Made by a program: the position numbers and the translations under genes
Part shown: one piece after another, positions 3,744 to 38,223 of the stretch
Layout of the letters: each line of letters begins with the position of its first letter
Numbering within the stretch: position 1 is the first letter of the stretch
Notes under the pieces: generated by a model
Seen by the model: only the letters and a program-made list of their open reading frames with translations
What the model was told of the DNA's origin: nothing
The model's database searches: none
Source: Escherichia phage vb_EcoM-VR5
Length of the DNA: 64,000 nt
Strand: one strand, 5' to 3'
Sequence record: NC_028881.1

Positions 3744-4762
3744 CGTGTAACCTCATTATAAAGTTGGGCAGCCATAGTCTTAAGGGCTTTAAGGTCATCT
3801 TCAGTATGGCCATCAGGAAGAGCATCGATATAATCATACATCATATCCAAGAGCGACTTAACTTCGTCTTCCTCTTCAGAATCATCAATATCAACGCTGT
3901 TATCTACCTTAGACACAATACGTAAAGAGTGGACCACCTTTTCAAGTTCAGATTCAAACTTAGTAAGCCCGTCATCGATTTTATCGACTATAACACGAAC
4001 TGCAATATTTGTAAAATCTTTGTAATCGATGGTTGCATTAGGATAATGAATCTTACGATGCCAACAGGTTTCATTGATAACAAAATCCATTTTATGGGTT
4101 TCAGTATCGAAAATCCAGAAACCGCGAGGGTCGTTCTCATCGCCTGCAGTAAGGGTCCATGGAGTACCGATGTACTTAACGTTTGCGGCATCAGAAATAG
4201 TATGGAAGTGGCCAGACCAAACTTGCTTATACTTTTTAAGGAAATCAGGTTCTAAACCGTGAGATTTCATTCCTTTATAGAAATAGAACCCATTTAATTC
4301 CCAGTGACCAATACAGAAATCTGCTGTAGTATTTTTGATATGTTCCATGATATCAGTCGTGTTTTCTTCACACATCCACGGAATCAAATCAATTTCGGTG
4401 CCATCAAAGTTTACTGTTGTAGGTTTCTCGATAACCTTGATATGGTCATATTTACCGAGAACTTCAGAAGCGGCATTCGGCGTTAAGGTATTTTTGTAGT
4501 GCATATCATGATTACCAACAACGGTATACATGGTAATGCCATTAGCTTTAAGCAAATCAGAGATTTCGCGAGCGAATTCCATACACTTATGGGTAATTGC
4601 TTTACGAACGTCAAAGATATCACCGTATTGAATCCATACAGTAATGCCATTTGCTTTAGAATAATCAATAGCGTCTTGGATACCTTGGCGTTGGATATTT
4701 TGTACCCACACATCATCGGCTTTCACTCCAAGGTGCCAGTCACCTGTGTTTAATATTTTCAT
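3740..4762 (-). CDS. 47: recombination endonuclease subunit gp47 (SbcD/Mre11-like phosphoesterase)
   Basis: Track ORF 3740..4960 trimmed to internal ATG (MKILNTGDWHLGVK...), 340 aa; metallophosphoesterase motifs GDWHLG, GNHD, GHWE; T4 gp47 is 339 aa. Confidence 0.92.
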   Translation of the reverse strand: MKILNTGDWHLGVKADDVWVQNIQRQGIQDAIDYSKANGITVWIQYGDIFDVRKAITHKCMEFAREISDLLKANGITMYTVVGNHDMHYKNTLTPNAASEVLGKYDHIKVIEKPTTVNFDGTEIDLIPWMCEENTTDIMEHIKNTTADFCIGHWELNGFYFYKGMKSHGLEPDFLKKYKQVWSGHFHTISDAANVKYIGTPWTLTAGDENDPRGFWIFDTETHKMDFVINETCWHRKIHYPNATIDYKDFTNIAVRVIVDKIDDGLTKFESELEKVVHSLRIVSKVDNSVDIDDSEEEDEVKSLLDMMYDYIDALPDGHTEDDLKALKTMAAQLYNEVTR

Positions 4763-6787: not shown

Positions 6788-7056
6788 TGTAGGAATCGGG
6801 CTCCTTCTAGTGCATCATCAAGGTTATCAAACTCATCAACGTAATCAATACCACCAACTTCATCCTTTGCATACAGCCAGTACTGTTTAAATTCATATTC
6901 GATAATAAAGTGGTCGCCTTCGATTTGAAGTACGCCAGCATCATTTTCACATACGGTATAACCAACCAGTCGAATGTCGTTCAAGAGTTCGTTTTTCATA
7001 GTAATTGTTTCCAGGTTCTTCTCGTAATTAGAGAGTTTAATTTTAGGTAAAGTCAT
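6784..7056 (-). CDS. hypothetical acidic protein
   Basis: 90 aa ORF, tightly packed (ATGA-type overlaps on both sides). Confidence 0.4.
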   Translation of the reverse strand: MTLPKIKLSNYEKNLETITMKNELLNDIRLVGYTVCENDAGVLQIEGDHFIIEYEFKQYWLYAKDEVGGIDYVDEFDNLDDALEGARFLQ

Positions 7057-7382
7057 TTCGCAGCCTTAACAATTTTCAGGTCAACGAATTTTTTCTTACG
7101 TTGGTTTTTCATACGTCGAATAGTTTTATCTGTGATTTCACCCGGGTGCCAAGCTTTAGATTCAACACCAAAGGCAGCAACATCAAACTCGTCAAGGATA
7201 TATTGAACCAGGATTTCACGAATACCGTTATGACCGATTTTTTGGTCTTTAGAGCGCATGATTGGTAACAGTTCAGCAACCCATTGGTCAAGAATCTGAG
7301 GAGTTACAAAGCCAGTTTTCATCAGTTCGTTAACTTTATCGAAAGCGAAAGAGTTCAGTACGTTTTTGATTGCTTGTGACAT
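7053..7382 (-). CDS. hypothetical protein
   Basis: 109 aa; preceded by promoter cassette and leader ACTGAGGAAATTATTATGTCACA, nearly identical to the leader and first codons (MSQAI) of the unrelated gene at 13962..14807. Confidence 0.45.
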   Translation of the reverse strand: MSQAIKNVLNSFAFDKVNELMKTGFVTPQILDQWVAELLPIMRSKDQKIGHNGIREILVQYILDEFDVAAFGVESKAWHPGEITDKTIRRMKNQRKKKFVDLKIVKAAK

Positions 7383-7419
7383 AATAATTTCCTCAGTTTA
7401 TTAAAATTTATAATCCGTA

Positions 7420-7454
7420 GGACCATTATACTCTGGTCCCAAGAGTTTGTAAAC
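7420..7454 (-). promoter_or_regulatory. early sigma70-type promoter inside a stem-loop (PeSL-like cassette), approximate coordinates
   Basis: RNA sense GTTTACA-N17-TATAAT; -10 box flanked by inverted repeat GGACCA/TGGTCC; SD GAGGAAA and ATG of 7053..7382 follow. Confidence 0.65.
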
Positions 7455-7654
7455 TATTTTTGTGCTAATGCACCTTTCCAGCCTTCATACATCATTCCGG
7501 CTGAAAGTAACAAAGCGCCTGAACAGCTTGAGTGTTTGTGATTCCAAAACCAATTCAGAAAAACTTCGTCATCAATACCTTGAGCTATCATATTTTCAAA
7601 GAACTGACGACGAGCTTCGGCAATACGTTGTGACAGTAAAGATTGTGGATTCAT
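7454..7654 (-). CDS. hypothetical small protein
   Basis: Track ORF 7454..7747 trimmed to internal ATG (MNPQSLLSQRIAEARRQ...) preceded by SD GAGGAAAA; 66 aa. Confidence 0.35.
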   Translation of the reverse strand: MNPQSLLSQRIAEARRQFFENMIAQGIDDEVFLNWFWNHKHSSCSGALLLSAGMMYEGWKGALAQK

Positions 7655-7661
7655 ATTTTCC

Positions 7662-7955
7662 TCAGCTATAACGATAACATTCGTTTGATTTACGTTTTGC
7701 AACTCGATGAGAAGTATTGTAATCAGGTTCATCGTCGTTGTAAACATCTTTTTTCAGCTTTCTCACTTCTTTACGAAGCTGACGATTCATTTCATTCTTA
7801 ACTTCGGAATCAACACCACCCATACGTTTCCACTTATCAGAACGGAAGATATTCTCTTCAACTTGTTCCTGACTTACACCGTCCGGTGCTTTACGACGTC
7901 CTGAATAACAAAAATCTTTTACAGACAATTCTTTACGACGAATAGTTTTACCCAT
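7662..7955 (-). CDS. hypothetical basic protein
   Basis: 97 aa, Lys/Arg-rich (RKLKKDV, RVAKRKS). Confidence 0.4.
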   Translation of the reverse strand: MGKTIRRKELSVKDFCYSGRRKAPDGVSQEQVEENIFRSDKWKRMGGVDSEVKNEMNRQLRKEVRKLKKDVYNDDEPDYNTSHRVAKRKSNECYRYS

Positions 7956-7957
7956 AG

Positions 7958-8212
7958 TTACCTCAGCAGTTTGTATCCAATAAGATTTTTGATATACTGA
8001 ATATCTTTGATATCCAAATCCAACTTAAGGTCTTTCAGACGTTCAGCCAGAGTAAGAAATGTTACTCGCTTCCAATTTTTAACAGGGCAGCAATAAGTCT
8101 TAGGCCCATTTGCAATTTCAATATTTTTATCTGTGATGGTGAGAAAAATCAGGCGCTCATCATCAAGGTTCAGGGTGATGACATTTTTCATTGCATGTAA
8201 TTTCAGGCTCAT
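7958..8212 (-). CDS. hypothetical protein
   Basis: 84 aa ORF co-oriented with neighbours. Confidence 0.4.
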   Translation of the reverse strand: MSLKLHAMKNVITLNLDDERLIFLTITDKNIEIANGPKTYCCPVKNWKRVTFLTLAERLKDLKLDLDIKDIQYIKNLIGYKLLR

Positions 8213-8391
8213 GATTTAATTTCCTTTGCTACTGAACAAAACACAGAGCGGTCACACACCATCAACGGGGCATCAGGCCAATTCAAAGGTTGATACCAGA
8301 CATCCAGACTTGATACTTTAGTTACTTGAACAGGATAGCCGTTTACTGAAAAATACTGGTCAACTTTAATTTCTTTATCTTGAATAGTCAT
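8209..8391 (-). CDS. hypothetical small protein
   Basis: 60 aa ORF immediately downstream of a promoter cassette. Confidence 0.35.
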   Translation of the reverse strand: MTIQDKEIKVDQYFSVNGYPVQVTKVSSLDVWYQPLNWPDAPLMVCDRSVFCSVAKEIKS

Positions 8392-8404
8392 AATGTTCTC
8401 CTCA

Positions 8405-8450
8405 TGTGTTGATAGGATAGACTATAACACACAAGGAGAGGAAGTAAACA
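8405..8450 (-). promoter_or_regulatory. early promoter cassette, divergent PeSL-like copy (approximate)
   Basis: RNA sense GTTTACT-N16-TATAGT followed by CTATCCTATCAACAC; window shows ttgataggatagactataaca, a variant of the conserved 20-mer. Confidence 0.55.
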
Positions 8451-8768
8451 CTAATCTTCAATTAAATCTCGGTCATAACCAAGTTCAATCAAAAGTGTCT
8501 TAAAAGAAGGAATATTTTCTATTTTCTTATTATCAACAAAGATAACAGGATAACGTATAGCTAAGCTCTTGAAGCCGGCACGTTTGGCCAATGATACTAT
8601 AAGAGGCTTGTCATATACTGCACCTGACGGCGTCTGGTTAATCACAGGATAGAAAGTATATTGAATGGAAAGGGAATTTAGGAGCGATAGAACTGCAATG
8701 CACCCTGGACAGCGCATGACTGTCTCAGGGATACCGTAGATTTCGATTTTAGTTGACTTTTGGTCCAC
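8451..8768 (-). CDS. glutaredoxin/NrdH-like redoxin (CPGC active site); start uncertain
   Basis: C-terminal ~100 aa of track ORF 8451..8993 reads KIEIYGIPETVMRCPGC..., a thioredoxin-fold beta1 strand plus CxxC motif. Upstream gene ends at 8749, so start is probably GTG at 8768 (SD GGAG) or ATG at 8813. Confidence 0.45.
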   Translation of the reverse strand: MDQKSTKIEIYGIPETVMRCPGCIAVLSLLNSLSIQYTFYPVINQTPSGAVYDKPLIVSLAKRAGFKSLAIRYPVIFVDNKKIENIPSFKTLLIELGYDRDLIED

Positions 8769-9048
8769 AGGAAATAACTCCTTGGTAGTCCCAAGTTTTG
8801 ATAACTTCTTCATCATCAATGGTTTTATACGGGACATAAACCTGAATAAGGAAACCGGTGTCATCGAAAGAGAAATAAACCGTTGGTTTGATTCCATGAA
8901 TCTCAGATAGAGCATAGATATCTTTAAGGTCTTCTTCTTTATCAGCAAAGAATTCCGGGTTAAGGTCGCAGTCATGGAAGTACCAGTCATCACCGAACTT
9001 GTCCCATTCGGTCCAATTGGTAGCTACATATTCTTCGAAACGTTTCAT
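8749..9048 (-). CDS. hypothetical acidic Trp-rich protein
   Basis: 99 aa ORF (MKRFEEYVATNWTEWDKFGDDWYFHD...). Confidence 0.4.
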   Translation of the reverse strand: MKRFEEYVATNWTEWDKFGDDWYFHDCDLNPEFFADKEEDLKDIYALSEIHGIKPTVYFSFDDTGFLIQVYVPYKTIDDEEVIKTWDYQGVISCGPKVN

Positions 9049-9260
9049 TCTTTCACCTTCAGCATTTTTGCGATAACACTATGAATAGCCTGGATACGTT
9101 TGTTGAACTCAGACTCTTCAAGACCCTTTTCAGTACTCAGCCATCCGATGATAACAAACAGCAATCCGAACGGAATAGCCAGGATTAAAAGGCACACGAT
9201 AAACAAGACCAGTGTAATGTTAGCCAGAATATCAGAAGCAGCATTACGAAAATTATTCAT
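9045..9260 (-). CDS. small membrane protein
   Basis: 71 aa with one strongly hydrophobic segment (ITLVLFIVCLLILAIPFGLLFVIIGWL). Confidence 0.4.
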   Translation of the reverse strand: MNNFRNAASDILANITLVLFIVCLLILAIPFGLLFVIIGWLSTEKGLEESEFNKRIQAIHSVIAKMLKVKE

Positions 9261-9381
9261 AGGATAACCCAGGTATTATTGACAACAAATAACCATAGAG
9301 CTGGATACTCTACACCCATACGACGGATAATATCATTCATAGCTTCAGTTAGAGCATAGAACGTGTAACCATAAAAATTAA

Positions 9382-9855
9382 TCATTTAAGCGATTTCCTC
9401 AGTTGTTTTTTAAATGAATCAACCATTTGTTTCTTAGTGTCGGATTCATTATAAGTCATTCCATGTGAAAGCATTTCAGCAATCATTTCTTCCTTACCTA
9501 ATCTACTGAACTCTTTGGTTTTATCAGGAACGAAATTCGGGTGGATATTATTTTCAGTGTAATCGGTTTTCAGATAGACTAGCAAATTCTCTAACCATTC
9601 GAGGTAGTCAACGTTTTGACCTTTCAAACCAGAACGGTTGAACTTATGCTTCATTTGTCCCTCTGCAGCATTGCACAGGTTACATAGTAAACCACGAACC
9701 TTACCAGCTTTTGGCCCGTTCAATTCATGGTCGTGGTCAAGGTGGTTACTTTGAACATCAGGGTTTAATTCACGTTTACAAATCAAACACTTACCATCCT
9801 GTGCATCATAAAGTTTTTGTTTTTCTTCTTTGTATAATTTGCCAGTCAACAACAT
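9382..9855 (-). CDS. 49: endonuclease VII (Holliday junction resolvase) gp49
   Basis: 157 aa; MLLTGKLYKEEKQK...CLICKRELNPDVQ..NHLDHDHELNGPKAGKVRGLLCNLCNAAEGQMKHKF... matches T4 gp49 (157 aa) including the zinc-binding Cys and HNH-like core. Confidence 0.95.
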   Translation of the reverse strand: MLLTGKLYKEEKQKLYDAQDGKCLICKRELNPDVQSNHLDHDHELNGPKAGKVRGLLCNLCNAAEGQMKHKFNRSGLKGQNVDYLEWLENLLVYLKTDYTENNIHPNFVPDKTKEFSRLGKEEMIAEMLSHGMTYNESDTKKQMVDSFKKQLRKSLK

Positions 9856-9860
9856 AATAA

Positions 9861-9885
9861 ACCCTTACCTGTATTAGATAAGGGT
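9861..9885 (-). promoter_or_regulatory. leader hairpin sequestering the gene 49 ribosome-binding site (approximate)
   Basis: RNA sense ACCCUUAUCUAAUACAGGUAAGGGU places the SD AGGUAAGGG in the 3' arm of a stem directly before the ATG; a late-promoter-like AATAAATA sits just upstream. T4 gene 49 is known to use RBS sequestration in its long transcript. Confidence 0.45.
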
Positions 9886-10356
9886 ATTTATTAAATATTA
9901 TAAAACGAGCGATGCAACCGTTTAAATTGTCGAATCATCTTTTTAGTAGGATGAGTATATAATCCTACGCAGGTGACCATAAACCGGTCAGTAGGACTTC
10001 CTTTGATAAGAAGTTTCCAGACCTTACCACCATTTAACTTTTCGGTATAGACTAATACAGTTTTCATTAGAACGCCTTATCAGAAAAGCGAAGTTGAGCT
10101 TCAAGCCAATGGATATAATCAGCCGCGGCAAAAATTAAATCAGATTCTTCATCAGATAACTTACGGGAATCCGACAGCTCGTAAAGAGAATGTTCAATCA
10201 GACGACCTTTATGTCGGCCAACTTCAATTTTGGTACTCATACCCAAACTCCGTATCGATTAATTCATTGTTTGAAGGTTCATTATACTCTATTTCGGAAT
10301 CGTTGTAAACCGGTTCCTCTGGCTCGGTAGTTTCCCACCGAGCGACATACCATGGC

Positions 10357-10665
10357 TTAACGGTCACACCACCAACTACTTACTTCAAAATCGGGTTCAC
10401 CGTCTTCCCAGAACCAGGGGCCAACCGGATGCCAATCGCCATGCTTATCTTCTTCATATTCTTCAGATTCAAGTCCAACGTATTGCCATTGGACTTCATA
10501 AGCAATGTCGCCGATTACAACAGTGTTCTCGCCATACGGGTTAGCCACAACAAAGTCAATACCTTCTGCTTTAGCCAACCAAACCATGTATTCATATAGC
10601 TTATATTCTAGGTCATCTTCGGTACCGTCACCTAGAAAAATGGTCTGTTCGTTTAATTCAATCAT
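10357..10665 (-). CDS. hypothetical acidic protein
   Basis: 102 aa ORF, Trp/Glu-rich. Confidence 0.4.
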   Translation of the reverse strand: MIELNEQTIFLGDGTEDDLEYKLYEYMVWLAKAEGIDFVVANPYGENTVVIGDIAYEVQWQYVGLESEEYEEDKHGDWHPVGPWFWEDGEPDFEVSSWWCDR

Positions 10666-10850
10666 AATTCCACCATAAATTCAAATAGCTGGTCACGTAC
10701 ACAAGTATCAGTCCAACCCCATTCGTTGGCTTCTTCTTTTAACCAATCCGGGAGATTTGCCAATACGATTTCTTTACTAGGCGCAGGAGTATCAAACTCT
10801 CTTGCAAACTCTCTTGCGCAGGTTTCATAAGCTGTATCAAATTCGGTCAT
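10662..10850 (-). CDS. hypothetical small protein
   Basis: 62 aa ORF overlapping the downstream gene start. Confidence 0.35.
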   Translation of the reverse strand: MTEFDTAYETCAREFAREFDTPAPSKEIVLANLPDWLKEEANEWGWTDTCVRDQLFEFMVEL

Positions 10851-11010
10851 TTAAAGTTCCAGAATGAAGCACCAACCAGAAATAAAGGCCAACAAATCAT
10901 AGACGTCAGCCACCAACAAAAATCACCTACACCGAAATCATCTAATTTAGCTAGGGTCTTAGCATAACCAATACCGATGATAATATACAAAACACCCAAC
11001 ATTAATTCAA

Positions 11011-11274
11011 TCATTTGAAATATTCTCGCAGTTCAGTGAATCCACCAATATGACTTCCGTCAGGAGCAAACACTTGTGGCATAGTCAAGCCAATTTGGGA
11101 TTCGCGACCAAGTTTAGCCAGGAGTTGAGCAATCTTCTCATCATCAAACACGCCTTTTTCTGGCATAACGTTCACGAACTCGTAAGGTTGTTTCTTAACA
11201 TCCAAAAAACGTTTAGCATTATCACAGAAAACACAACGATGAATATTTGAATCATAACCATAAATTTTAAACAT
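11011..11274 (-). CDS. nrdC: thioredoxin NrdC
   Basis: 87 aa; MFKIYGYDSNIHRCVFCDNAKR...QVFAPDGSHIGGFTELREYFK is collinear with T4 NrdC (87 aa) with a C-x-x-C active site. Confidence 0.92.
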   Translation of the reverse strand: MFKIYGYDSNIHRCVFCDNAKRFLDVKKQPYEFVNVMPEKGVFDDEKIAQLLAKLGRESQIGLTMPQVFAPDGSHIGGFTELREYFK

Positions 11275-11275
11275 T

Positions 11276-11512
11276 TTAAATTCCTAATACTTGTTTGAAG
11301 GTCTCAGTATAATCAGGGTATTGACCGGTTTGTTCTTTATGTTTGTCCATAATATCATAAACTTCTGAACGCACATTATTATACGAGCGAGTTAAAGCGG
11401 ATTTCAATACTGAATAACTATCCGGAAATTTACCGTGTTCTTTATAATAGGCCAGAGTTAATTCACGGACCGCCTTATCAGCAGTCTCAAGATATTCTTT
11501 ACGCTTTGCCAT
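11276..11512 (-). CDS. hypothetical protein
   Basis: Track ORF 11276..11644 trimmed to internal ATG ([15 protein letters not shown]...) because the upstream gene ends at 11499. Confidence 0.4.
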
Positions 11513-11810
11513 TTTCGTCTCGCTCAAATTTGTGTTTACAATGACGGCATTTATAACGAAGATTGCTAGTCTGCCAATGCACCAGTTGGACCTGTTCAGT
11601 TCCGCATTCCGGACAGTTAGGAACATTCTTGGAAGCTTGTTCACGACGACTAACCATAGCCATCACAGCATCCCAATTAACAGGGCTATAATCATCGCAC
11701 CCATGAATTTTTCCAATCAATTCAACTTCATCGTCCTCGGCTTCTTTAATAAATTTCAATAAACCTGTATTAGAGGCTGCAGCAATATCTTCTCTTAAAC
11801 GATTTTTCAT
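11499..11810 (-). CDS. zinc-ribbon protein
   Basis: 103 aa with CPECG...(16 aa)...CRHCKHKF, a 4-Cys zinc ribbon. Confidence 0.45.
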
Positions 11811-12814
11811 TTCAGCAGCTCCAGAGCGTGTTCAAGACGGTCTAAACGATTAGTGGACTCTTCCCAAAGTTTCTTAGCAGCAGTATATTGTCCAGTCAGT
11901 TTTTTGTTAATAGCAAGGGCGTCTTTATATGCTTTTTCCAGAGCAATTATTTCCGGCAACTTGGATTTAGTAATTGGTGTAGGGGCCATGATAGGGCTAT
12001 TCAAGTCATTAATCAAGTCTTCTAATGTAGCAGGCTCTTTATCAGTGTTCACAATTTCCTCACATTTTTCTTGGTAAATTTCGGCGTCAGTTTTTGGAAC
12101 AGCACATTTGATTTCGCGAACTTTTACTAGGACTTCATATCCTTTCCAGCCTAAGGTGCGTTTGATTTCTTGAGTCTCATATTTCTCTACCGTATCCATC
12201 AGGGCTAAAGCCTGTTCGACGGTATTCAGAGTTTCATAAGAAATATCTTGGTACTTTACAACTTCCGCTTCATCTTTAGGTTTCCGGTTTGGTGACCAGA
12301 TAATAGAAATAAGCACCCTTCCTTTATAAGCATTTGTTTTAATCATGCAATTCGCCAATGGGTGGATAGTACGACCGTCACCGGCAACTACAGTTTTAGT
12401 GGCTGCTTTGAGAATTAATGCAGAGTTAGCCTTAAATTCGGCGGCCCAACGTTGTGGAAATAGGGTACTAAGGTCCATACCTTTAATTTTGATATACCCT
12501 TTTAAAACATCACCAAACCATTTGTAGTTAACATGAGCCGGACTACGATATTTCTCTTTGCCAAAGTCGGAAAGGAGGTCCTTATTGACCAAGCGTGAAA
12601 GCAGTCGAGACCCTTTAAAAGTTTCAGTGATATCAGAAATAAACAAACGGCCCGCAATCTTTTCGATTTCAGATTTAAAACACCGTGACAAATCTTCATC
12701 AATTTGGTCAACCCATTTACTGATATTAGAAACTATTACCTCATACGGCGTTAATGGAGGCGTAGTGGTAGTAATATACGCAGTGAAGGCTTTGATATAT
12801 TCGTTACGTGACAT
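11807..12814 (-). CDS. hypothetical protein (335 aa)
   Basis: Track ORF 11807..12853 trimmed to ATG preceded by SD GAGGAGAA (MSRNEYIKAF...); promoter cassette directly upstream. Confidence 0.5.
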   Translation of the reverse strand: MSRNEYIKAFTAYITTTTPPLTPYEVIVSNISKWVDQIDEDLSRCFKSEIEKIAGRLFISDITETFKGSRLLSRLVNKDLLSDFGKEKYRSPAHVNYKWFGDVLKGYIKIKGMDLSTLFPQRWAAEFKANSALILKAATKTVVAGDGRTIHPLANCMIKTNAYKGRVLISIIWSPNRKPKDEAEVVKYQDISYETLNTVEQALALMDTVEKYETQEIKRTLGWKGYEVLVKVREIKCAVPKTDAEIYQEKCEEIVNTDKEPATLEDLINDLNSPIMAPTPITKSKLPEIIALEKAYKDALAINKKLTGQYTAAKKLWEESTNRLDRLEHALELLK

Positions 12815-12841
12815 GATATTCTCCTCAGTAGATTTAGAAAG

Positions 12842-12872
12842 ATTATACTCCATCCGTCCTTGGATGTAAACA
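12842..12872 (-). promoter_or_regulatory. early promoter with adjacent stem-loop (PeSL-like), approximate
   Basis: RNA sense GTTTACA-N17-TATAAT; CATCC/GGATG inverted repeat in the spacer; leader CTGAGGAGAATATCATGTCAC resembles those at 7382 and 14807. Confidence 0.6.
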
Positions 12873-13742
12873 CTATTTTAGAGCTTTTACTGCAGCGCGA
12901 AGCTTGTCACGCTGGATTTCCATATTCTTGATGCGAATCAATACGTCTTGAATACTCTTTTTCTCATCTTCGATCTGACCGTTTAAACGGTGGATTGATT
13001 CCTGGATGTAGTCCTCATGATACTTCTCGATAGGTTTCATCGTAGGGTTAGTAACAACCATAGAATTATCAGGTGTAATTTTCCAATGATACGGTTTGGA
13101 ATTGAATGGACTAGGCACCGCGGTGGTTTTGAATTTGTCATAGGCTGCATACTGGCCTACACTGTCACATGATACTGCAGAGATACGACGTTCCATTTGT
13201 GGTTCCTTTTGTTGGGATTGATAAGGGGCATAAGACAAAAGATATTGTCGAGTTAGTTTAACTCTGATATACACGGCATCGGCTCGCCCGGAACAATCAG
13301 CATATTCATCGGTTGTAACTTTATATGATTCTACTGCCTTAATACGAGTCATTGCCTCTCTGAATAAGGTTTCGAATGCTTCACGAAGGGCCTTATTACC
13401 TTTTGAGGTAGGACGGAAACGAACTTGGATACCGTCAGCCAGAATATTAATGACTAAGTTACGAGGGGTAAAATTAATATTCTTGATATTAACAGGAACC
13501 GTAACAATGCGCCCTGCTGTAGACAAAAGGTCTTTGATATTAGCTCGTAATGTTGCAGCAAATAAATGAGCAGGGCTACGGCAGTAATCATTCAAAGAAG
13601 AGATATAAGTTCCTTTACGACCTACGCCATAAGTATAACTACCATTACAAATATAGCCAAAGTCAGCTAGCCGGTCAATAGCGATACGACGAGTCGTGTC
13701 ATGGTCATATATAGAGTATTCTTTACGTGTTTTAATGTTCAT
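12873..13742 (-). CDS. hypothetical protein (289 aa)
   Basis: Track ORF 12873..13811 trimmed to internal ATG (MNIKTRKEYSIYDHD...) because the upstream gene ends at 13744. Confidence 0.5.
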   Translation of the reverse strand: MNIKTRKEYSIYDHDTTRRIAIDRLADFGYICNGSYTYGVGRKGTYISSLNDYCRSPAHLFAATLRANIKDLLSTAGRIVTVPVNIKNINFTPRNLVINILADGIQVRFRPTSKGNKALREAFETLFREAMTRIKAVESYKVTTDEYADCSGRADAVYIRVKLTRQYLLSYAPYQSQQKEPQMERRISAVSCDSVGQYAAYDKFKTTAVPSPFNSKPYHWKITPDNSMVVTNPTMKPIEKYHEDYIQESIHRLNGQIEDEKKSIQDVLIRIKNMEIQRDKLRAAVKALK

Positions 13743-13743
13743 A

Positions 13744-13959
13744 TTAAAGTCCAAATAATTTTTCATAGAGTTTAGCGAATGGCCACAGCACGACCATAAC
13801 TGCACAAACAAACCAAAGCAAAGGCCATACTAGTGTAATGAATACTGCATCATAACTTGACTCAATTTCGACCGGATTCCAATCACCGGATTTATGAATA
13901 AAGACGGCCGTTATGAATCCTAATACAAAATAAAGGAAAATAAAACCTAAGATTTCCAT
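13744..13959 (-). CDS. small membrane protein
   Basis: 71 aa, two hydrophobic segments (ILGFIFLYFVLGFITAVFI; LVWPLLWFVCAVMVVLW). Confidence 0.4.
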   Translation of the reverse strand: MEILGFIFLYFVLGFITAVFIHKSGDWNPVEIESSYDAVFITLVWPLLWFVCAVMVVLWPFAKLYEKLFGL

Positions 13960-13961
13960 AA

Positions 13962-14807
13962 TTAATCCTTAAGAAGATTTAGAATATCAAGATATTTTTG
14001 ACGTTCGGCCTTGGCTTTAGCATTCAGACCGGAAAGTCGGAAAATCTCATCGTCTTGGCGCTGGATTTCAACATTCAAGCAAGTAATCAAATTAGTAAAA
14101 TACTCAAGCTGGGTTTGGTGTTTCTCATTGCTACGCACTGGTACAGGTTCCGCTTTAGGAGCTTGTTCTGAATGATTCTTAACTTCATTGCCTGGCCTAA
14201 TAAGTTTAATACGCCAACCTGTATTGGTATGAACATTATCGAAGGTAAGAATACCACTACGTTCAAGTTCGGTCAACGCCAATCGGAGATGGAATTTCCA
14301 GTTGTCGTATTGACATCCACTAAAAGTGGAAGTAAGATACTCGTTTTCATTACCTGGTTGGTTAACAATATTAAAGATAATCCAATCACCAGAGCCATTG
14401 GTCTTAAATGGCATTTGCTTATCTTGGCCTGAAGCCATACGAGCACCAAGTGCTAGTAAACGACGTTGGTTGGTACGAAGGTCTTTAACAACTTCATCAA
14501 ATGTCATCGCCGGGATTAAACGACCATAGAGGTCATAGCCTTTGTTATAATTTTTAAGAATAATTTTGGCGTTAGCACGAGACAACATACCTGCCCTGTG
14601 AAGAGATTTCATGACTCGGTCTTCTAACGTAAACAAACCTTTAGTCTTGTCAAAGATTTTAGTGAATTCATCTACAGCAATACAAACTTCAAACTTTTCC
14701 CACATCATGGCCAAAACCTTTTCAACCACTTCTTTATTCAGTGGAATACGACCAAATTTAATAACTTTTTTAACTTCAGAACGAATTTGATTAATTGCCT
14801 GTGACAT
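13962..14807 (-). CDS. hypothetical protein (281 aa)
   Basis: Starts MSQAINQ... behind a leader nearly identical to that of 7053..7382; no assignable domain. Confidence 0.5.
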   Translation of the reverse strand: MSQAINQIRSEVKKVIKFGRIPLNKEVVEKVLAMMWEKFEVCIAVDEFTKIFDKTKGLFTLEDRVMKSLHRAGMLSRANAKIILKNYNKGYDLYGRLIPAMTFDEVVKDLRTNQRRLLALGARMASGQDKQMPFKTNGSGDWIIFNIVNQPGNENEYLTSTFSGCQYDNWKFHLRLALTELERSGILTFDNVHTNTGWRIKLIRPGNEVKNHSEQAPKAEPVPVRSNEKHQTQLEYFTNLITCLNVEIQRQDDEIFRLSGLNAKAKAERQKYLDILNLLKD

Positions 14808-14844
14808 AATAATTTCCTCAGTAAGTAATTAAGAACCTAGAACC

Positions 14845-14870
14845 ATTATACCATCCTTGGTATAAAGCGT
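14845..14870 (-). promoter_or_regulatory. middle (MotA-type) promoter-like element, approximate
   Basis: RNA sense aaaCGCTTTA (MotA-box-like, one mismatch to TGCTTtA) - 12 nt - TATAATGGTTCTAGG; overlaps the stop of the upstream gene. Confidence 0.5.
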
Positions 14871-15395
14871 TTATGCGAGAACCGTCTTTAAACGCTCTTC
14901 AAATTTCTGAAGCAGAGCTTGGCGTTCAGCTCGTTGTGATTTGTACTGCTCGATACGTCCTGAAGTGAGGGCGTACTGTTCGTTTACTGATTCCCGCATA
15001 AATTCAGGAATTTCTTTACAAGCTTTGATTTCGTCAAACTTATCAATAACCGCTTGTTCCTCGGCAATCAGATTATCGAAATAAGCGATATCTGATTTAA
15101 CGTTTGCCAGGTCAGATTCGGTAGGCATTAAACGTTTGTTACGTTCAGATTGATAAGCTTGGTTGGTTTCACGACTCCAGTGAAGAGTACGTTTTTTGTT
15201 AGTATTTTTATAGAGCTCTACAATACCTACTGAATCGATGATAGCAATCCAGTTCCAACGGCTTTTGTAAATCTCTCCTCCAGATACGGTAATCTCATTT
15301 CCACAAGCAACATCGTTAAAGAACTTGCTTTGTTTTTCAGATTTAAAATTACCGTTATTAAAATTAATCAGTGAAAAAATATCTTTAGCGTTCAT
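14871..15395 (-). CDS. hypothetical protein (174 aa)
   Basis: ORF directly downstream of the PeSL at 15402-15450; Asn/Lys-rich N-terminus. Confidence 0.5.
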   Translation of the reverse strand: MNAKDIFSLINFNNGNFKSEKQSKFFNDVACGNEITVSGGEIYKSRWNWIAIIDSVGIVELYKNTNKKRTLHWSRETNQAYQSERNKRLMPTESDLANVKSDIAYFDNLIAEEQAVIDKFDEIKACKEIPEFMRESVNEQYALTSGRIEQYKSQRAERQALLQKFEERLKTVLA

Positions 15396-15401
15396 GTTAA
15401 C

Positions 15402-15450
15402 CTCCAGTAGTTGATAGGTCTATAGTATCATTCCTACTGGAGATGTAAAC
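15402..15450 (-). promoter_or_regulatory. PeSL-like promoter/stem-loop cassette, approximate
   Basis: Conserved 20-mer ttgataggtctatagtatca between perfect 9-bp inverted repeat ctccagtag/ctactggag, then gtaaac; RNA sense GTTTAC-N17-TGaTACTAT (extended -10). Confidence 0.7.
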
Positions 15451-24074: not shown

Positions 24075-24533
24075 TTAAAGATAGATTACTTTCGTGCTAG
24101 TTTTACCTTCTAAACGTTTAGAGTTAACAAATGCCATACGACATTTTAATGAATATCCTTTATCAGGATGTTTACGATCTACAGTCATACCTAACCATAA
24201 GGTTTTATCGGTAATCTCGAGACGCAGTGGACGATACACTTTACCTGGGACAATTTCAGATTCTACATCAGGCAGAGGTTCCTGGATTAAAAATTCATGG
24301 ATTTCTTTAACATGGTTATGGAGTTGCTTGAATAAAGCAAAAACGTATTTTTCGTCAATTTCACGTTGGATAGCACGGTCCAATAGGTGATTAGAGTACT
24401 TAATAAAGAAAGCTGGGACTCCACTCTTAATGGCGGCTTTTTTGATGGATGTATTCAGTTCACGAAATTCGGTTTCGAACTGACGACGTAATTTGTTGCG
24501 GCGGATGAATACTTCTGAATTAATTTCTGACAT
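24075..24533 (-). CDS. regB: RegB site-specific endoribonuclease
   Basis: 152 aa; EVFIRRNKLRRQFETEFRELN...HLLDRAIQREIDEKYVF... is collinear with T4 RegB (153 aa). Confidence 0.85.
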   Translation of the reverse strand: MSEINSEVFIRRNKLRRQFETEFRELNTSIKKAAIKSGVPAFFIKYSNHLLDRAIQREIDEKYVFALFKQLHNHVKEIHEFLIQEPLPDVESEIVPGKVYRPLRLEITDKTLWLGMTVDRKHPDKGYSLKCRMAFVNSKRLEGKTSTKVIYL

Positions 24534-24540
24534 TTTGTTT

Positions 24541-24590
24541 CTCCTGTAGTTGATAGGTTTATAGTATCATGCCTACAGGAGATGTAAACT
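24541..24590 (-). promoter_or_regulatory. PeSL-like promoter/stem-loop cassette upstream of regB, approximate
   Basis: ttgataggtttatagtatca between perfect inverted repeat ctcctgtag/ctacaggag, then gtaaac. Confidence 0.7.
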
Positions 24591-26226: not shown

Positions 26227-26643
26227 TTATGCATAAATCGCCTTACTGTAATATTTATACCAGGTAGGGCGTTGTGCAATTTTTTCGTCTAAACGGGCCT
26301 GTGATATAACGATAGAAGCTTCATGGGGGATATAATCACCACGGAATTCCTGAGGAATATCACTAATATCCTGGACTGTAGTATCCTTGATATTAAACCC
26401 ACGTTTTAGACATTCGTCTATAAGCTCAATTTGACGTTTACGTAAGAACTCGAGCTTATCGTAAAAGAATGTAACATGACCTGTGCCAAGGATAAAAGTA
26501 GGACTGATTTTAAAATCACGAACCCGTTTACCATTAGCAACATGCTTACGAACTGCACCAAAAACACGTGGTAATTCACGATATTCGGCCATTAAGTGTT
26601 GGTCAGCCAATTCAGATACTAAAGTAAGGTTGATACGAGTCAT
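26227..26643 (-). CDS. denV: endonuclease V (pyrimidine-dimer DNA glycosylase) DenV
   Basis: 138 aa; [53 protein letters not shown]... is essentially identical to my recollection of T4 DenV. Confidence 0.95.
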
Positions 26644-26649
26644 TTTAAT

Positions 26650-26699
26650 CTCCTGTAGTTGATAGGTCTATAGTATCATACCTACAGGAGATGTAAACT
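26650..26699 (-). promoter_or_regulatory. PeSL-like promoter/stem-loop cassette upstream of denV, approximate
   Basis: Consensus 20-mer ttgataggtctatagtatca between perfect inverted repeat ctcctgtag/ctacaggag, then gtaaac. Confidence 0.7.
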
Positions 26700-26707
26700 A
26701 CTATGAA

Positions 26708-27007
26708 CTAGAAAGAACCAGAGCCTTTAATTGTGTTCTGGCGTCCTTTATTTTCTACTTCAGAGTGGTCGATTTCGTAAGCTTGTGCTACACCAAAGGA
26801 TTTTTTAATTTTGGCCAACGACCCTTTAGAAATAACAATGTTAAAGGTATTGCCTTTAGAAAAATCTACCAAATCTACAGTAACGCCGTTATTGGTTAAA
26901 CTATTAACAATAGCATCAACATATTGTTGGTCTAAAGTTCCCTGAACGCCGATTTGAAAAGCTTTAGGTGCTTTAGCTTCAGTGATAAATTCTTGATATG
27001 TTTTCAT
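26708..27007 (-). CDS. ipII: internal protein with capsid-targeting sequence (IPII-like)
   Basis: 99 aa; N-terminal MKTYQEFITEA is the T4 capsid-targeting sequence; size and position (between denV and ipIII) match T4 IPII. Confidence 0.6.
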   Translation of the reverse strand: MKTYQEFITEAKAPKAFQIGVQGTLDQQYVDAIVNSLTNNGVTVDLVDFSKGNTFNIVISKGSLAKIKKSFGVAQAYEIDHSEVENKGRQNTIKGSGSF

Positions 27008-27140
27008 TTCAAATCCTAGCTGGTTTTAATTAAAAGCCATTCCGTGGCTCATTAGTTAAGGTTAATCCCTTCCTGCAGTACCTGTTCGAGTGCTCGGGCC
27101 CTCCTCATAGAGGTTAGACCCTGTTAGACTTTATTAGGAA
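27008..27140 (-). other. GC-rich structured intergenic element between ipIII and ipII (approximate)
   Basis: Hairpins CCUC-UAU-GAGG and GCCA-CGGAA-UGGC plus conserved GCAGGAAGGGAU block; homologous to the element at 26095-26226. Confidence 0.45.
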
Positions 27141-27710
27141 TTAACGGGCTGCATTAGCAACAGCGTAAGCGTACTGAATATTAGCGTCTTTAAACTTACC
27201 TTTAGAGGTATCTATTTCTGCCTTAAAGCCGCCTTTAGTCATAACATCGGCAAATTCTTTACGGAAAGCCATTGCATCAAGACCTTTCCATGATGATTTA
27301 TGCTTGGCAAATTCAAGACCTGCGAAGTTGACAGCTTTAGCCAATTTATTATCAATAGCCCATTTACCGGCTTTAGGCACAAACTTCGGGCCCTTCTGTT
27401 TAGAGAACAGTTTTAAATTCCAGCGGCGAAGGTCCGAATCAGCTTTAACAAATTCGGAGTCTAAATTACTAGCAACAACATCGTCAATATGAGCGAATTT
27501 AAGTCCGTCAACTTCAATATTTAGGTCGTTACGCCAGCGAAGTCCTTCCCAGGCGAAAGCTTTAAAGTCAGAAGCTTTTGTAGCTAAGTACCGTTCAATA
27601 GGAGCTGTTTTAGCGTCAAAACCGTTTCCTCGGTAGGTCCACTCATCTTTGTTAATGCCTTGGGCTTTTCCTACAGAAGCTTCGGCGATAAATTCTTTAT
27701 ATGTTTTCAT
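27141..27710 (-). CDS. ipIII: internal protein with capsid-targeting sequence (IPIII-like)
   Basis: 189 aa; N-terminal MKTYKEFIAEA; size and position (immediately upstream of e) match T4 IPIII (193 aa). Confidence 0.6.
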   Translation of the reverse strand: MKTYKEFIAEASVGKAQGINKDEWTYRGNGFDAKTAPIERYLATKASDFKAFAWEGLRWRNDLNIEVDGLKFAHIDDVVASNLDSEFVKADSDLRRWNLKLFSKQKGPKFVPKAGKWAIDNKLAKAVNFAGLEFAKHKSSWKGLDAMAFRKEFADVMTKGGFKAEIDTSKGKFKDANIQYAYAVANAAR

Positions 27711-27798
27711 GTGTTTCCTTTAAATATTTTAATTAGCGATTTGACTGTTTAAGTAACTGTGAATATAGTATCATGACCACAGATCAAAGTAAACAAAT

Positions 27799-30295: not shown

Positions 30296-30508
30296 TTACT
30301 TTTTATTGAAAAAGTACATTTTACCTTTAGGAGATAAAGATACACGAAGCGCGTTACCGATACCAACTGAACATTTAACCAGGTCAGCAGATTTCAATTC
30401 ACCAAACGCTTGACGAAGGTCACCATCACGAGTGTTAACCATCAGGCATTTAGCACCAGCTGCACGAACTTCGTTTAACATGTTGATTGCGTTAGTAGAA
30501 AGTTTCAT
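30296..30508 (-). CDS. hypothetical small protein
   Basis: Track ORF starts with TTG inside the promoter; trimmed to ATG behind SD GGAGAA (MKLSTNAINMLNEVRAAG...), 70 aa. Leader GGAGAATAAAATGAAA is shared with 37449..37634. Confidence 0.4.
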   Translation of the reverse strand: MKLSTNAINMLNEVRAAGAKCLMVNTRDGDLRQAFGELKSADLVKCSVGIGNALRVSLSPKGKMYFFNKK

Positions 30509-30534
30509 TTTATTCTCCATTTCACTCTGTTGTT

Positions 30535-30575
30535 TTGATAGGTCTATAGTATCACACCTATAGACCTTGTACACT
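30535..30575 (-). promoter_or_regulatory. PeSL-like promoter/stem-loop cassette, approximate
   Basis: Consensus 20-mer ttgataggtctatagtatca with perfect inverted repeat ggtctatag/ctatagacc; -35-like GTGTACA in RNA sense. Confidence 0.6.
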
Positions 30576-32217: not shown

Positions 32218-32442
32218 TTAACAGCTACTTGGATACCAGATTTTACCATCAGCTTGGGCAACGAAGGTGCGGCCAGCTTCTTCACCATAACAAGAGCTAT
32301 TCAGCCAATCTTCAAGACGAACTTCGCCGTCATAATCGTCGAGCTCGACACCGAAATTTTGGGCAGAAGCCATATCTTTAACTTTCTTATACAATGCGGC
32401 CAGTTCAAGAGCAGCTTTTTCCAATTCATTAATATCAGACAT
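32218..32442 (-). CDS. small acidic protein, paralog family with C-terminal SSC tail (copy 5, most divergent)
   Basis: 74 aa; ends ...GKIWYPSSC; last of five tandem genes. Confidence 0.5.
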   Translation of the reverse strand: MSDINELEKAALELAALYKKVKDMASAQNFGVELDDYDGEVRLEDWLNSSCYGEEAGRTFVAQADGKIWYPSSC

Positions 32443-32451
32443 TTTTATTCC

Positions 32452-32673
32452 TTAGCAAGACATAGAGGAGGTAAACCAAAAACCTTCACCATCATTAATA
32501 CCATAATCACTGCGAACCCAGTCGTAATCTTCGTACTCAGGATTCTTCGGTGAAATATATTGTCCACGACCAGAAACATGGAAATCTTCACCAGTTTCAT
32601 CAGCCACGCTCTGACCTTCACGAACTAAAGCTCGGATTTGGTCTTCAATTTCTCTAACAGTTTTAGTAGTCAT
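32452..32673 (-). CDS. small acidic protein, C-terminal W-x-S-S-x-x-C paralog (copy 4)
   Basis: 73 aa; ends ...GEGFWFTSSMSC. Confidence 0.5.
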   Translation of the reverse strand: MTTKTVREIEDQIRALVREGQSVADETGEDFHVSGRGQYISPKNPEYEDYDWVRSDYGINDGEGFWFTSSMSC

Positions 32674-32682
32674 TTTATTACC

Positions 32683-32880
32683 TTAACATTCGTAAGAGGA
32701 GGACACCCAAGAGGTACCGCTAATAGTAATGCATCCATTATAAAGCTCAATATGCCTGTCTAAGTCACGAACACCATCGATATAGATATCAGCTTCTTCA
32801 CGTTCTTCTTTACAAATCTGGATAACATTTTCAATAGCCGCTTTAGCAGTACGGATTGCACAATCTAATTCACGAGACAT
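32683..32880 (-). CDS. small protein, C-terminal W-V-S-S-S-x-x-C paralog (copy 3)
   Basis: 65 aa; ends ...GTSWVSSSYEC; 3' coding sequence ttaacattcgtaagaggaggacaccca is near-identical at DNA level to copies 1 and 2. Confidence 0.55.
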   Translation of the reverse strand: MSRELDCAIRTAKAAIENVIQICKEEREEADIYIDGVRDLDRHIELYNGCITISGTSWVSSSYEC

Positions 32881-32889
32881 AATATTTCC

Positions 32890-33171
32890 TTAACATTCAG
32901 AAGAAGAGGACACCCAACCACCTTTTTCAAGGTCGGTGGTGTAGTCGTGGGTGTTAACGATAGCGTATTGAGGCTCACCATAGTTTTCCCAATGAGCAAG
33001 GTCGGCTTTCAGGGCGCCAGGAGAATAATAGTCACCGCCCATACCGCGAGCAGGGTATATATTAAAATGAGTCTCATATTTGTCTGCAATTTCCTCAGCT
33101 CGGCGAATAGCTTTATGGATTTCATTTACTGCGTTAGCCAGTTCTTTATTTTTACTGTAATCGTTCATCAT
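32890..33171 (-). CDS. small protein, C-terminal W-V-S-S-S-x-x-C paralog (copy 2)
   Basis: 93 aa; ends ...KGGWVSSSSEC. Confidence 0.55.
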   Translation of the reverse strand: MMNDYSKNKELANAVNEIHKAIRRAEEIADKYETHFNIYPARGMGGDYYSPGALKADLAHWENYGEPQYAIVNTHDYTTDLEKGGWVSSSSEC

Positions 33172-33180
33172 AATAAACCC

Positions 33181-33474
33181 TTAACACATTTGAGAAGAGG
33201 ACACCCATGCACCAGAAGTAACGATACCGTTTTCATCGACTTCGCCACCATTGTTTTCAATTTCATCACGCATCCAGCGAGAGCATTCATAACCAACCGG
33301 ATAATAGGTGCGTCCAGAACCATATTCACCTACATCAAACGAGACACCATACTTATCTGCAATAATAGTAGCTTCATTCTCGATATGGTCTTGGGCCCGA
33401 AGAAGTTTGCTGATAGCGTCCGTTGCGGTTTGAACGTCATTGTATTCAGGGATAGCGATTTCAATTTTATTCAT
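33181..33474 (-). CDS. small protein, C-terminal W-V-S-S-S-x-x-C paralog (copy 1)
   Basis: 97 aa; ends ...SGAWVSSSQMC. Confidence 0.55.
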   Translation of the reverse strand: MNKIEIAIPEYNDVQTATDAISKLLRAQDHIENEATIIADKYGVSFDVGEYGSGRTYYPVGYECSRWMRDEIENNGGEVDENGIVTSGAWVSSSQMC

Positions 33475-37448: not shown

Positions 37449-37634
37449 TTACTCACCTTTAGAGATTTTATCCATAACGAAAGAGATTGAACCAATTAAA
37501 AATGCCACTACTAAAGAGATTGTATTCTCGGAAGTTGTAAGCAAATCCAACATGAATCCTGCAAACATGCTAAAACCAAAAGCAGTAATAGCAACAAGCG
37601 CAGTAACATTTCTAATTAATTCACAACGTTTCAT
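37449..37634 (-). CDS. small membrane protein
   Basis: Trimmed to ATG behind leader GGAGAATAAAATGAAA (MKRCELIRNVTALVAITAFGF...); two hydrophobic segments. Confidence 0.4.
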   Translation of the reverse strand: MKRCELIRNVTALVAITAFGFSMFAGFMLDLLTTSENTISLVVAFLIGSISFVMDKISKGE

Positions 37635-37659
37635 TTTATTCTCCAATCACTCATTTGTT

Positions 37660-37701
37660 TTGATAGGGCTATAGTATCACCACTAGAGCCCATTGTAAAC
37701 A
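37660..37701 (-). promoter_or_regulatory. PeSL-like promoter/stem-loop cassette, approximate
   Basis: ttgatagggctatagtatca (1 mismatch) with inverted repeat gggctatagt/actagagccc, then gtaaac. Confidence 0.6.
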
Positions 37702-37702
37702 A

Positions 37703-37975
37703 TTATTTTAGATAAATTGCATATTTTTTATAGCCAGCTGTCTCGTGGCGCAACCCTTTGTCATTAGCAAAGCGTTCAATATTATTAATTTGATTTTGGT
37801 CGAGTTCTGAAATATCAAATACAAAAAAGTTTCGCTTATTGCCTAAAGTTACATGATTAGTCAAATCGATGTTATAGAGATGATTTATATTATCAATCAT
37901 GGCCTTAACAGATTTGCTAATTTTTACTTCTTCATTAAGAATAGATTCAGCGATAAATTCTTGATAGGTTTTCAT
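37703..37975 (-). CDS. internal-protein-like protein with capsid-targeting sequence
   Basis: Trimmed to MKTYQEFIAESILNEE...; N-terminal capsid-targeting sequence; about 90 aa. Confidence 0.5.
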   Translation of the reverse strand: MKTYQEFIAESILNEEVKISKSVKAMIDNINHLYNIDLTNHVTLGNKRNFFVFDISELDQNQINNIERFANDKGLRHETAGYKKYAIYLK

Positions 37976-37976
37976 T

Positions 37977-38201
37977 TTATTCTGCACCAGCAGCTTTCAA
38001 AAGTTTTTTAAGATTGGCTGTGCCCTGAGCAGAAAATGTGACCTTGCCACCTTTTTCACTGATAGAACCAACCAATTTAGCAAGTTTATCATTAGGAATT
38101 TTTTTAAAATCAGCCAATGTTCCATCAAAGGTTTTTGAAACAAAAGGCAGTTCGTCTTCGTGTCTTTTAGCTTCGGTAATAAATTCTTGATAAGTTTTCA
38201 T
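37977..38201 (-). CDS. internal protein with capsid-targeting sequence (IPI-like position)
   Basis: 74 aa; MKTYQEFITEAKRHEDELPF...; lies just upstream of 57B where T4 carries ipI. Confidence 0.5.
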   Translation of the reverse strand: MKTYQEFITEAKRHEDELPFVSKTFDGTLADFKKIPNDKLAKLVGSISEKGGKVTFSAQGTANLKKLLKAAGAE

Positions 38202-38223
38202 TTTAAATCCTTAAGTAGTTGTT

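Follow-up and report, generated by a model that had tools for sequence, protein, structure and literature searches.

Two minus-strand genes of Escherichia phage vb_EcoM-VR5, the homologues of T4 55.2 and nrdC.6, encode unrelated proteins and yet begin with an almost identical leader and the same first five residues. Both lie in the 64,000-nucleotide stretch of sequence record NC_028881.1 analysed here, which is called the window. An earlier note on this DNA had read the resemblance as the signature of promoter, leader and start-codon modules recombined onto different coding bodies, and the locus raises the question of how two such starts came to be alike. The most probable answer is that each gene inherited its promoter, leader and ribosome site independently and that the two regions converged on one optimal initiation signal, with a coincidence of the Ser-Gln-Ala-Ile (S-Q-A-I) codons in addition. 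The phage belongs to the genus Dhakavirus (JS98-like, T4-type); the window is 94% identical to ESCO10 and 88-89% identical to JS98, IME08 and others. Gene names were taken from the curated JS98 annotation, together with RB14 and T4, and the annotation of ESCO10 was disregarded.

The shared start-site block

The two genes and the sequence common to their starts are located as follows.

7053..7382, minus strand: gene 55.2 homologue, 109 amino acids, DUF7570 (Pfam), named after the curated JS98 annotation
13962..14807, minus strand: gene nrdC.6 homologue, 281 amino acids, phrog_2257, function unknown
7366..7397, minus strand: shared translation-initiation block, copy A (55.2), with Shine-Dalgarno (SD) sequence GAGGA 7390-7394, AU-rich spacer, ATG 7380-7382 and codons 2-5 (S-Q-A-I) 7368-7379
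14791..14822, minus strand: shared translation-initiation block, copy B (nrdC.6), with SD and spacer as in copy A, ATG 14805-14807 and codons 2-5 (S-Q-A-I) 14793-14804

The blocks are identical at 30 of 32 bases (repeat family D12), and the 23-nt ACTGAGGAAATTATTATGTCACA is an exact run common to both. The 29-mer ACTGAGGAAATTATTATGTCACARGCAAT, that is ACTGAGGAAATTATTATGTCACA(A/G)GCAAT, is present at exactly two places in the window and never in shuffled sequence. Both open reading frames (ORFs) start MSQAI, and no protein homology is found beyond these residues (BLASTP E = 8.6; the Pfam and PHROG families differ). Every sequence quoted in the earlier note is present on the minus strand where it was said to be. 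Start sites were compared over positions -25 to +18 of 76 called gene starts, in all 2,850 pairs, with the start of nrdC.4 set by hand (the gene caller's 12853 fell inside the promoter). The highest rank goes to 55.2/nrdC.6, where 33/43 positions are identical and one run of 29 nt contains at most one mismatch.

The similarity is composed of two islands, one of 13 nt at -10/+1 and the other, of 32 nt, at the ribosome site, and the spacers from -10 to SD are unequal in both length and sequence. The first island, TATAATGGTYCTA, lies at 7418-7430 and 14838-14850, with a third copy on the plus strand at 40339-40351 (0.18 expected). Gapped alignment of the stretch between promoter and -16 gives 62% identity, which places the pair 48th among the 120 pairs formed by 16 promoter regions of the window; by the same measure, the true cassette copies described below reach 73-95%. 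One contiguous module running from -35 to codon 5 was rejected, as the gapped alignment gives 71% identity overall and 62%, the background level, outside the ribosome site.

Promoters and leaders of 55.2, nrdC.6 and nrdC.4

Upstream of the blocks, the following elements were assigned.

7425..7453, minus strand: 55.2 sigma-70 early-type promoter, TTTACA 7448-7453, 17-nt spacer, TATAAT 7425-7430
7418..7441, minus strand: hairpin UGGGACCA / UGGUCCUA of the PeSL type (early promoter with stem-loop), with the -10 hexamer in the loop
14838..14872, minus strand: nrdC.6 MotA-type middle promoter, MotA-box-like AAACGCTTTA 14863-14872, 12-nt spacer, TATAAT 14845-14850
14866..14896, minus strand: 8-bp stem-loop AGCGTTTA / TAAACGCT at the end of nrdC.8, PmSL-like (the middle-promoter version), overlapping the MotA box
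12812..12870, minus strand: nrdC.4 early promoter (TTTACA-17-TATAAT) and leader ACTGAGGAGAATATCATG, gene 11807-12814

In T4, gp55.2 is an inhibitor of host topoisomerase I (PMC4396842); that paper gives no information on the regulatory region of the gene. In VR5, a sigma-70 early promoter would serve 55.2, and a conserved hairpin holds the -10 of this promoter in its loop. The promoter matches the consensus at 11 of 12 positions and is among the best returned by a promoter scan of 5-17 kb, and the stop codon of 55.3, the gene upstream, overlaps its -35. Likened to T4 PnrdC.7, its predicted transcription start is the A at 7418. The GGTCCT(A) before 55.2 is the 3' arm of the hairpin and is specific to this gene. 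In varied sequence forms the hairpin stands upstream of 55.2 in every orthologue examined: its six stem pairs are 100% paired across 8 distinct sequences of several genera, with compensatory changes in four pairs. None of 500 shuffles reaches the covariation score, and slid controls give about 50% pairing. The corresponding hairpin of T4 is a plain terminator-like GGGCTTCGGCC(C). In the predicted fold of the 55.2 leader, SD and AUG are unpaired. As a side observation on this gene cluster, gene 55.4 (132 nt), which sits between 55.5 and 55.3 in JS98, ESCO10 and T4, is absent from the window at 7654-7662.

For nrdC.6, the promoter scan found no sigma-70 -35, and the gene would instead be read from a MotA-type middle promoter (CGCTTTA-12-TATAAT) situated directly after the nrdC.8 stop codon. 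The MotA box is described as (a/t)(a/t)(a/t)TGCTTtA, centred at -30 and separated by 12±1 bp from an excellent -10 (PMC2988021); AAACGCTTTA fits both the rule and the spacing with one deviation, C for T before GCTT. One pair of the adjoining stem-loop is compensated in T4 and RB14 (ACGGTTA / TAACCG). The T4 middle promoter PnrdC.7 has a mapped start at 53325 (MotA/AsiA sigma appropriation; Hinton 2010, PMC2988021), which by T4 sequence and coordinates is the A of TATAAT-GGTTCT-A. Because the mapped start falls on this base, TATAATGGTYCTA can be read as -10 hexamer, discriminator and start base. Like the nrdC.6 promoter, PnrdC.7 directly follows the nrdC.8 stop, has near-identical sequence (CGCTTTATACCAAGGATGGTATAATGGTTCTA) and carries a MotA-box-like motif 12 nt from TATAAT. 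It differs in driving nrdC.7 and then nrdC.6, whereas in Dhakavirus nrdC.6 is directly downstream since nrdC.7 is missing. The same promoter sequence follows nrdC.8 in T4, RB14, a Mosigvirus and a Gaprivervirus. By position and sequence the nrdC.6 promoter is the orthologue of mapped PnrdC.7, predicted to be MotA-type and to start transcription at the A at 14838, and its GGTTCT predates the Tequatrovirus/Dhakavirus split. The analysis thereby supplies a Dhakavirus counterpart of a mapped T4 middle promoter.

Both transcripts would accordingly begin at an A seven bases after TATAAT, and a shared start of this kind would explain why -10, discriminator and +1 are alike (TATAAT-GGTYCT-A). Fold prediction suggests that both leaders, which are short and AU-rich, are mostly unpaired. 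Elsewhere, two minus-strand genes are separated by a long hairpin (40325-40380; CCCAGCCAGT...ACTGGCTAGGG as read on the minus strand) whose loop contains a third TATAATGGTCCTA on the plus strand, either a possible antisense promoter or a match by chance.

A related leader before nrdC.4, also pointed out in the note, is present: ACTGAGGAGAATATCATGTCAC (12812-12829) matches at 15/18 positions over the leader. Codon 2 of this gene (12809-12811) is TCA (Ser) in VR5 only and ACC or ACT (Thr) in all relatives examined; two substitutions in codon 2 account for the start ATGTCAC that it has in common with 55.2 and nrdC.6.

Comparison with relatives

The opening MSQAIKNVLNS is found for 55.2 in Dhakavirus and in orthologues of just 56-65% identity (IMG/VR loci L018-L041), and the tblastn matches in this range come from Klebsiella, Enterobacter and Serratia phages; elsewhere the protein starts MSTKIKNV (RB69-like phages) or MTIQIKNA (T4). 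For nrdC.6 the start is MSQAINQI in Dhakavirus, MSQAINEI in Gaprivervirus, MSVVINNV in T4 and RB14, and MSVAINNV in GRNsp7, so that MS(Q/V)(A/V)IN is retained across three genera. Since the orthologues keep them, the MSQAI N-termini of 55.2 and nrdC.6 each belong to their own family and are older than the genus. In Gaprivervirus TH40, nrdC.6 begins MSQAIN and the phage's own 55.2 begins MTASITNI behind a different leader.

Within the genus, seven Dhakavirus genomes are about 100% identical from the end of nrdC.8 through promoter and leader to the first 40-60 nt of nrdC.6, and divergence starts well past codon 5. No homology break is present at 7380-7453 or 14790-14900 in the six Dhakavirus genomes aligned, nor was any association of indels or replacements with the two leaders seen among them. 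The breakpoints that the note had looked to relatives for are therefore missing: orthologous alignments have none at the shared block or immediately past it. Synonymous sites that vary in the two copies are few (CAA/CAG, GCA/GCT, TCA/TCT) and change independently among genomes, and concerted evolution within genomes was ruled out on this ground. In exact-match scans of IMG/VR, the 23-mer that includes the first codons was found only at the 55.2 and nrdC.6 loci of five Dhakavirus genomes; a mobile block was rejected, as each Dhakavirus genome yields no sites in the scans but the two expected ones.

These comparisons bear directly on a recent modular swap, in which a mobile promoter-leader-start cassette was put before two coding bodies. 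The 30/32 identity, the abrupt loss of similarity past codon 5 and the likeness of the -10 regions are what such an event would leave behind. However, the promoter classes differ and each promoter is syntenic, the similarity between the islands is at background, the N-termini are ancestral, and the block occupies just two sites per genome. A recent swap is thus already contradicted by the comparative sequence data and is hardly credible. Under convergence, no module would have been transferred to a new coding body at either locus.

As to annotation, the product names of ESCO10 (L001 / OM386655) seem shifted against gene content. The name "receptor-recognition protein assembly protein" is attached to its 55.2 homologue, and "inhibitor of host transcription" to its nrdC.6, which is given a start inside the -10 box.

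Probable convergence on a common initiation signal

The exact 18-nt leader also precedes a third Dhakavirus gene, one without its own promoter, as well as unrelated ORFs in phages of 230-245 kb and in phages of about 60 kb. In the window it recurs 6 times at no more than 3 mismatches, gene 44 included. Because it recurs before unrelated genes and in distant phages, the leader (SD GAGGA, 8-nt A/U spacer, AUG) is best regarded as a convergent consensus. The 55.2 and nrdC.6 leaders would end in this phage's own strong consensus ribosome-binding site, with ACUGAGGA, the 8-nt A/U spacer, AUG and UCA as second codon, and their identity would result from selection for an optimal initiation signal, possibly one that a repressor recognises too. 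The S-Q-A-I codons would represent a coincidence of two N-termini, each ancestral to its own family, with chance as the likely source of the QAI codons. Chance pairs of genes with the same first five residues are expected at about 0.13 in the gene set of the window and about 1.8 per 270-gene genome; the five-residue match taken alone is unremarkable. All features met here are of kinds already known, and the resemblance of the leaders is an ordinary one. Near-identical leaders before unrelated T4-like genes are to be expected where promoters, ribosome sites and the target motifs of RNA-protein binding are very strong and stereotyped. Consequently, leader likeness by itself is no sign of module swapping, and synteny and orthologue comparison are required.

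A special form of convergence is a shared translational operator, with both mRNAs bound by one RegA-like repressor at an AU-rich, unstructured site overlapping AUG; selection for this binding would hold the two starts alike, and no exchange would be involved. We consider this possible although rather unlikely. The block segment GGAAAUUAUUAUGUCA matches the T4 RegA consensus aaAAUUGUUAUGUAA, obtained by SELEX, at 12/15 positions, and is similar to the operators of rIIB (AAAAUUAUGUAC) and gene 44 (AAAUUAUGAUU), as given in the part of the review by Uzan & Miller (2010, PMC3014915) used here. T4 RegA operators are described there as AU-rich and unstructured, with a 5' A-tract, overlapping AUG or lying just 5' of it. 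Furthermore, repeat D12 has as its third member the initiation region of VR5 gene 44 (347-378), gene 44 being the classical RegA target; seven Dhakavirus genomes show no variation in the block between about -22 and +6, and diverge in the coding sequence beside it; and its SD is GAGG rather than GGAG, hence no RegB site. On the other hand, the same part of the review describes RegA specificity as loose and without clear consensus, and any AU-rich strong ribosome site scores alike. The motif is thus too permissive for assignment by sequence, and the blocks are candidate operators only. Neither 55.2 nor nrdC.6 is named as a RegA target in that part of the review, the regA gene is outside the window, and RegA binding leaves the CAA-GCA-AU codons unexplained.

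A separate observation concerns the phages of about 60 kb in IMG/VR, a group unrelated to VR5. Four of their loci (L066, L068, L070 and L071) have identical upstream sequence and the 18-nt leader ACTGAGGAAATTATTATG, followed by one of two alternative unrelated ORFs, MQAIHVKT... (81-82 amino acids) or MSTVLNQS... (85 amino acids). This is gene replacement with the junction at the start codon.

Rarity of the joint match

Several observations weigh against convergence with a coincidence of codons. Column shuffles equal the 55.2/nrdC.6 match in 0/1000 trials (P <0.001), and shuffles that preserve whole 15-nt leaders and whole codons equal it in 0.5-1.1% of trials. As its score is rarely or never reached, the match exceeds what position-specific composition provides, and the joint match of leader and four codons is rarer than these nulls predict, at about 1% under the stricter one. 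In addition, the nrdC.6 leaders of Dhakavirus and Gaprivervirus differ at three positions, all of which match 55.2 in Dhakavirus, and the T4-type nrdC.6 start MSVAINNV is like the 55.2 start MSQAIKNV at 6/8 residues, which could hint at an older shared 5' end.

Such points are what would be expected from a short-patch gene conversion in the Dhakavirus ancestor, starting from pre-existing microhomology, or from an older 5'-end exchange before the Tequatrovirus/Dhakavirus split. Either event, in the manner of PeSL recombination, would have brought a 55.2-type leader and codons onto nrdC.6. This direction would suit ACTGAGGAAATT, the widespread and probably ancestral state of the 55.2 leader. Cassette-to-cassette recombination does occur in the lineage and was shown experimentally in RB49 and phi1 (PMC2839356). 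However, Gaprivervirus nrdC.6 already begins MSQAIN while its 55.2 begins MTASIT, so the coding part of nrdC.6 was not imported in Dhakavirus. The flanking homology amounts to merely 13 nt, about 30 nt away across unequal spacers; concerted evolution and orthologous breakpoints are lacking; and the identical 18-mer arose independently in unrelated phages. Conversion or old exchange is accordingly improbable, and it is kept in consideration because of the joint rarity and the three leader positions matching 55.2.

The rarity would also be accounted for if the 30-nt block of SD, AU spacer, AUG and first four codons were one control element, selected as a whole and extending into the gene itself, or the relic of an old 5'-end exchange since kept by selection; we give this only a slim chance. 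If a single selected element were involved, it could serve as operator for a RegA-like repressor or in initiation efficiency, and it would define a small co-regulated gene set. Convergence of independently inherited start regions is retained as the probable explanation.

Early-promoter cassettes elsewhere in the window

The exchange proposed in the earlier note finds its counterpart in a different set of sequences. A cassette family of the form GTTTACA-N16-TACTAT-AGACCTATCAA...SD-ATG is present in at least 10 minus-strand copies of 73-95% identity, among them the following.

30499..30573, minus strand: early-promoter cassette before 30296-30508, repeat families D1 and D11
37625..37699, minus strand: early-promoter cassette before 37449-37634, 84% identical to the 30573 cassette over 75 nt
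26643-26697 and 27710-27793, minus strand: two early-promoter cassettes flanking a 1.1-kb two-gene segment

The leader that genes 30296..30508 and 37449..37634 were said to share is indeed common to both (30499-30519 and 37625-37645, 20/21 identical), in the form of TGGAGAATAAAATGAAAC (repeat family D11). In their SD region, GGAGAATAAAA fits the RegB consensus GGAGRAYARAA at every position; strong cleavage sites of this enzyme are given as GG*AGRAYARAA in the part of the review used here (PMC3014915). Thus GGAGAATAAAA is a predicted strong RegB site, unlike the 55.2 and nrdC.6 leaders with their SD GAGG.

For the 24-40 kb region, genomes were compared by a colinear dynamic-programming chain, simple chaining of blastn blocks being confounded by cross-matches between cassette copies. 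Indel or replacement edges occur at the cassettes at 24588, 26697, 27793, 35061 and 37699. For ESCO10, 5/18 breakpoint edges lie within 10 nt of a cassette (4% expected, P = 5e-4), and the association is weaker in UP19 and JS10. The clean case is that of 26697 and 27793: window 26702-27789, with two MKTYQEFI-type genes, is absent from ESCO10, where the junction (L078, about 3748-3757) falls exactly on the GTTTAC -35 that the two cassettes have in common, with the upstream flank of the 27793 cassette on one side and the body of the 26697 cassette on the other. In UP19 this site carries a replacement of 252 nt. At the 37699 cassette, an indel edge in ESCO10 and JS10 sits 5-10 nt upstream of the -35. 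Because the cassettes bound indels and the 55.2 and nrdC.6 leaders do not, module-mediated shuffling is real in this lineage and did not act at 7382 or 14807. Recombination of modules onto new coding bodies therefore holds in kind for the GTTTACA cassettes, those before 30296-30508 and 37449-37634 included, fails for 55.2/nrdC.6, and is not supported for nrdC.4.

The published model for such behaviour is the PeSL, an early promoter TTTACW-N17-TAYWAT with a stem-loop between -35 and -10 or over -10, and with SD and start codon on its 3' side; PmSLs have the same layout with a Mot-box promoter (Arbiol et al. 2010, PMC2839356; Comeau et al. 2014, PMC4122927). Terminator or attenuator activity and mini-circle formation also count among the PeSL features, for which reporter assays and outward-facing PCR were used (PMC2839356). 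In layout and in location within a hyperplastic region both the 55.2 and nrdC.6 loci resemble these elements, each carrying a promoter, a stem-loop, and SD and start codon at the 3' end. Unlike PeSL/PmSL copies, they are not copies of each other, agreeing only at -10/+1 and the ribosome site, and they are positionally conserved across genera without indel or replacement. The length-wise similarity of a recombination substrate is found in the GTTTACA family and is lacking in the 55.2/nrdC.6 pair. PeSL-type recombination, published for RB49/phi1, T4/PST and KVP40/nt-1, is thereby confirmed in the JS98-like Dhakavirus.

In four minus-strand early-promoter cassettes (26641-26697, 24531-24588, 15393-15449 and 8389-8448), the SD region has its complement in the spacer that separates -35 from -10, as in CTCCTGTAG...CTACAGGAG and in the compensated variant CTCCAGTAG...CTACTGGAG. 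The resulting hairpins enclose the -10 and have minimum free energies of -18 to -22 kcal/mol (z = -4 to -6). By this folding model, the SD would be hidden in read-through RNA and free in RNA from the internal promoter. T4-type phages retain the nrdC.8 version with arms of another sequence. T4 genes e, soc, 49 and I-TevI, as described in the part of the review used here (PMC3014915), are alike in having the 5' arm upstream of an internal start site and the SD as 3' arm; they differ in using a late internal promoter, whereas that of the cassettes is early sigma-70. SD-sequestering hairpins are not a feature of 55.2 and nrdC.6, where the SDs are unpaired. The stems are treated as terminators in the PeSL papers, and translation is not discussed (PMC2839356).

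Other features of the window

Another promoter with stem-loop is found at the start of gene 44 (347-420; MLTVNNNEF...EQKYRP), with leader CCTGAGGAAATTAATATG and the hairpin GGGAGGAAATTCCTCCC immediately 5' of TATAAT. This hairpin holds the TAG stop of gene 45, whose end at 425 is just upstream of gene 44.

Four small genes start MKTY(Q/K)EFI(A/T)E (26972-27017, 27675-27720, 37940-37985 and 38166-38211), and their 5' ends are 72-91% identical (repeat family D5). They form a paralogous family, internal-protein-like according to the annotation of JS10 and UP19, and the family itself lies in indels. At 32437-33208, four tandem small ORFs, 207-291 nt apart, have 43-nt leader and start regions that are 67-100% similar (D6), probably a tandem paralogue array. 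Finally, three tandem 144-nt repeats, 69-76% identical (D2), occur at 57742-58122 within a large plus-strand late gene (56000-58210).

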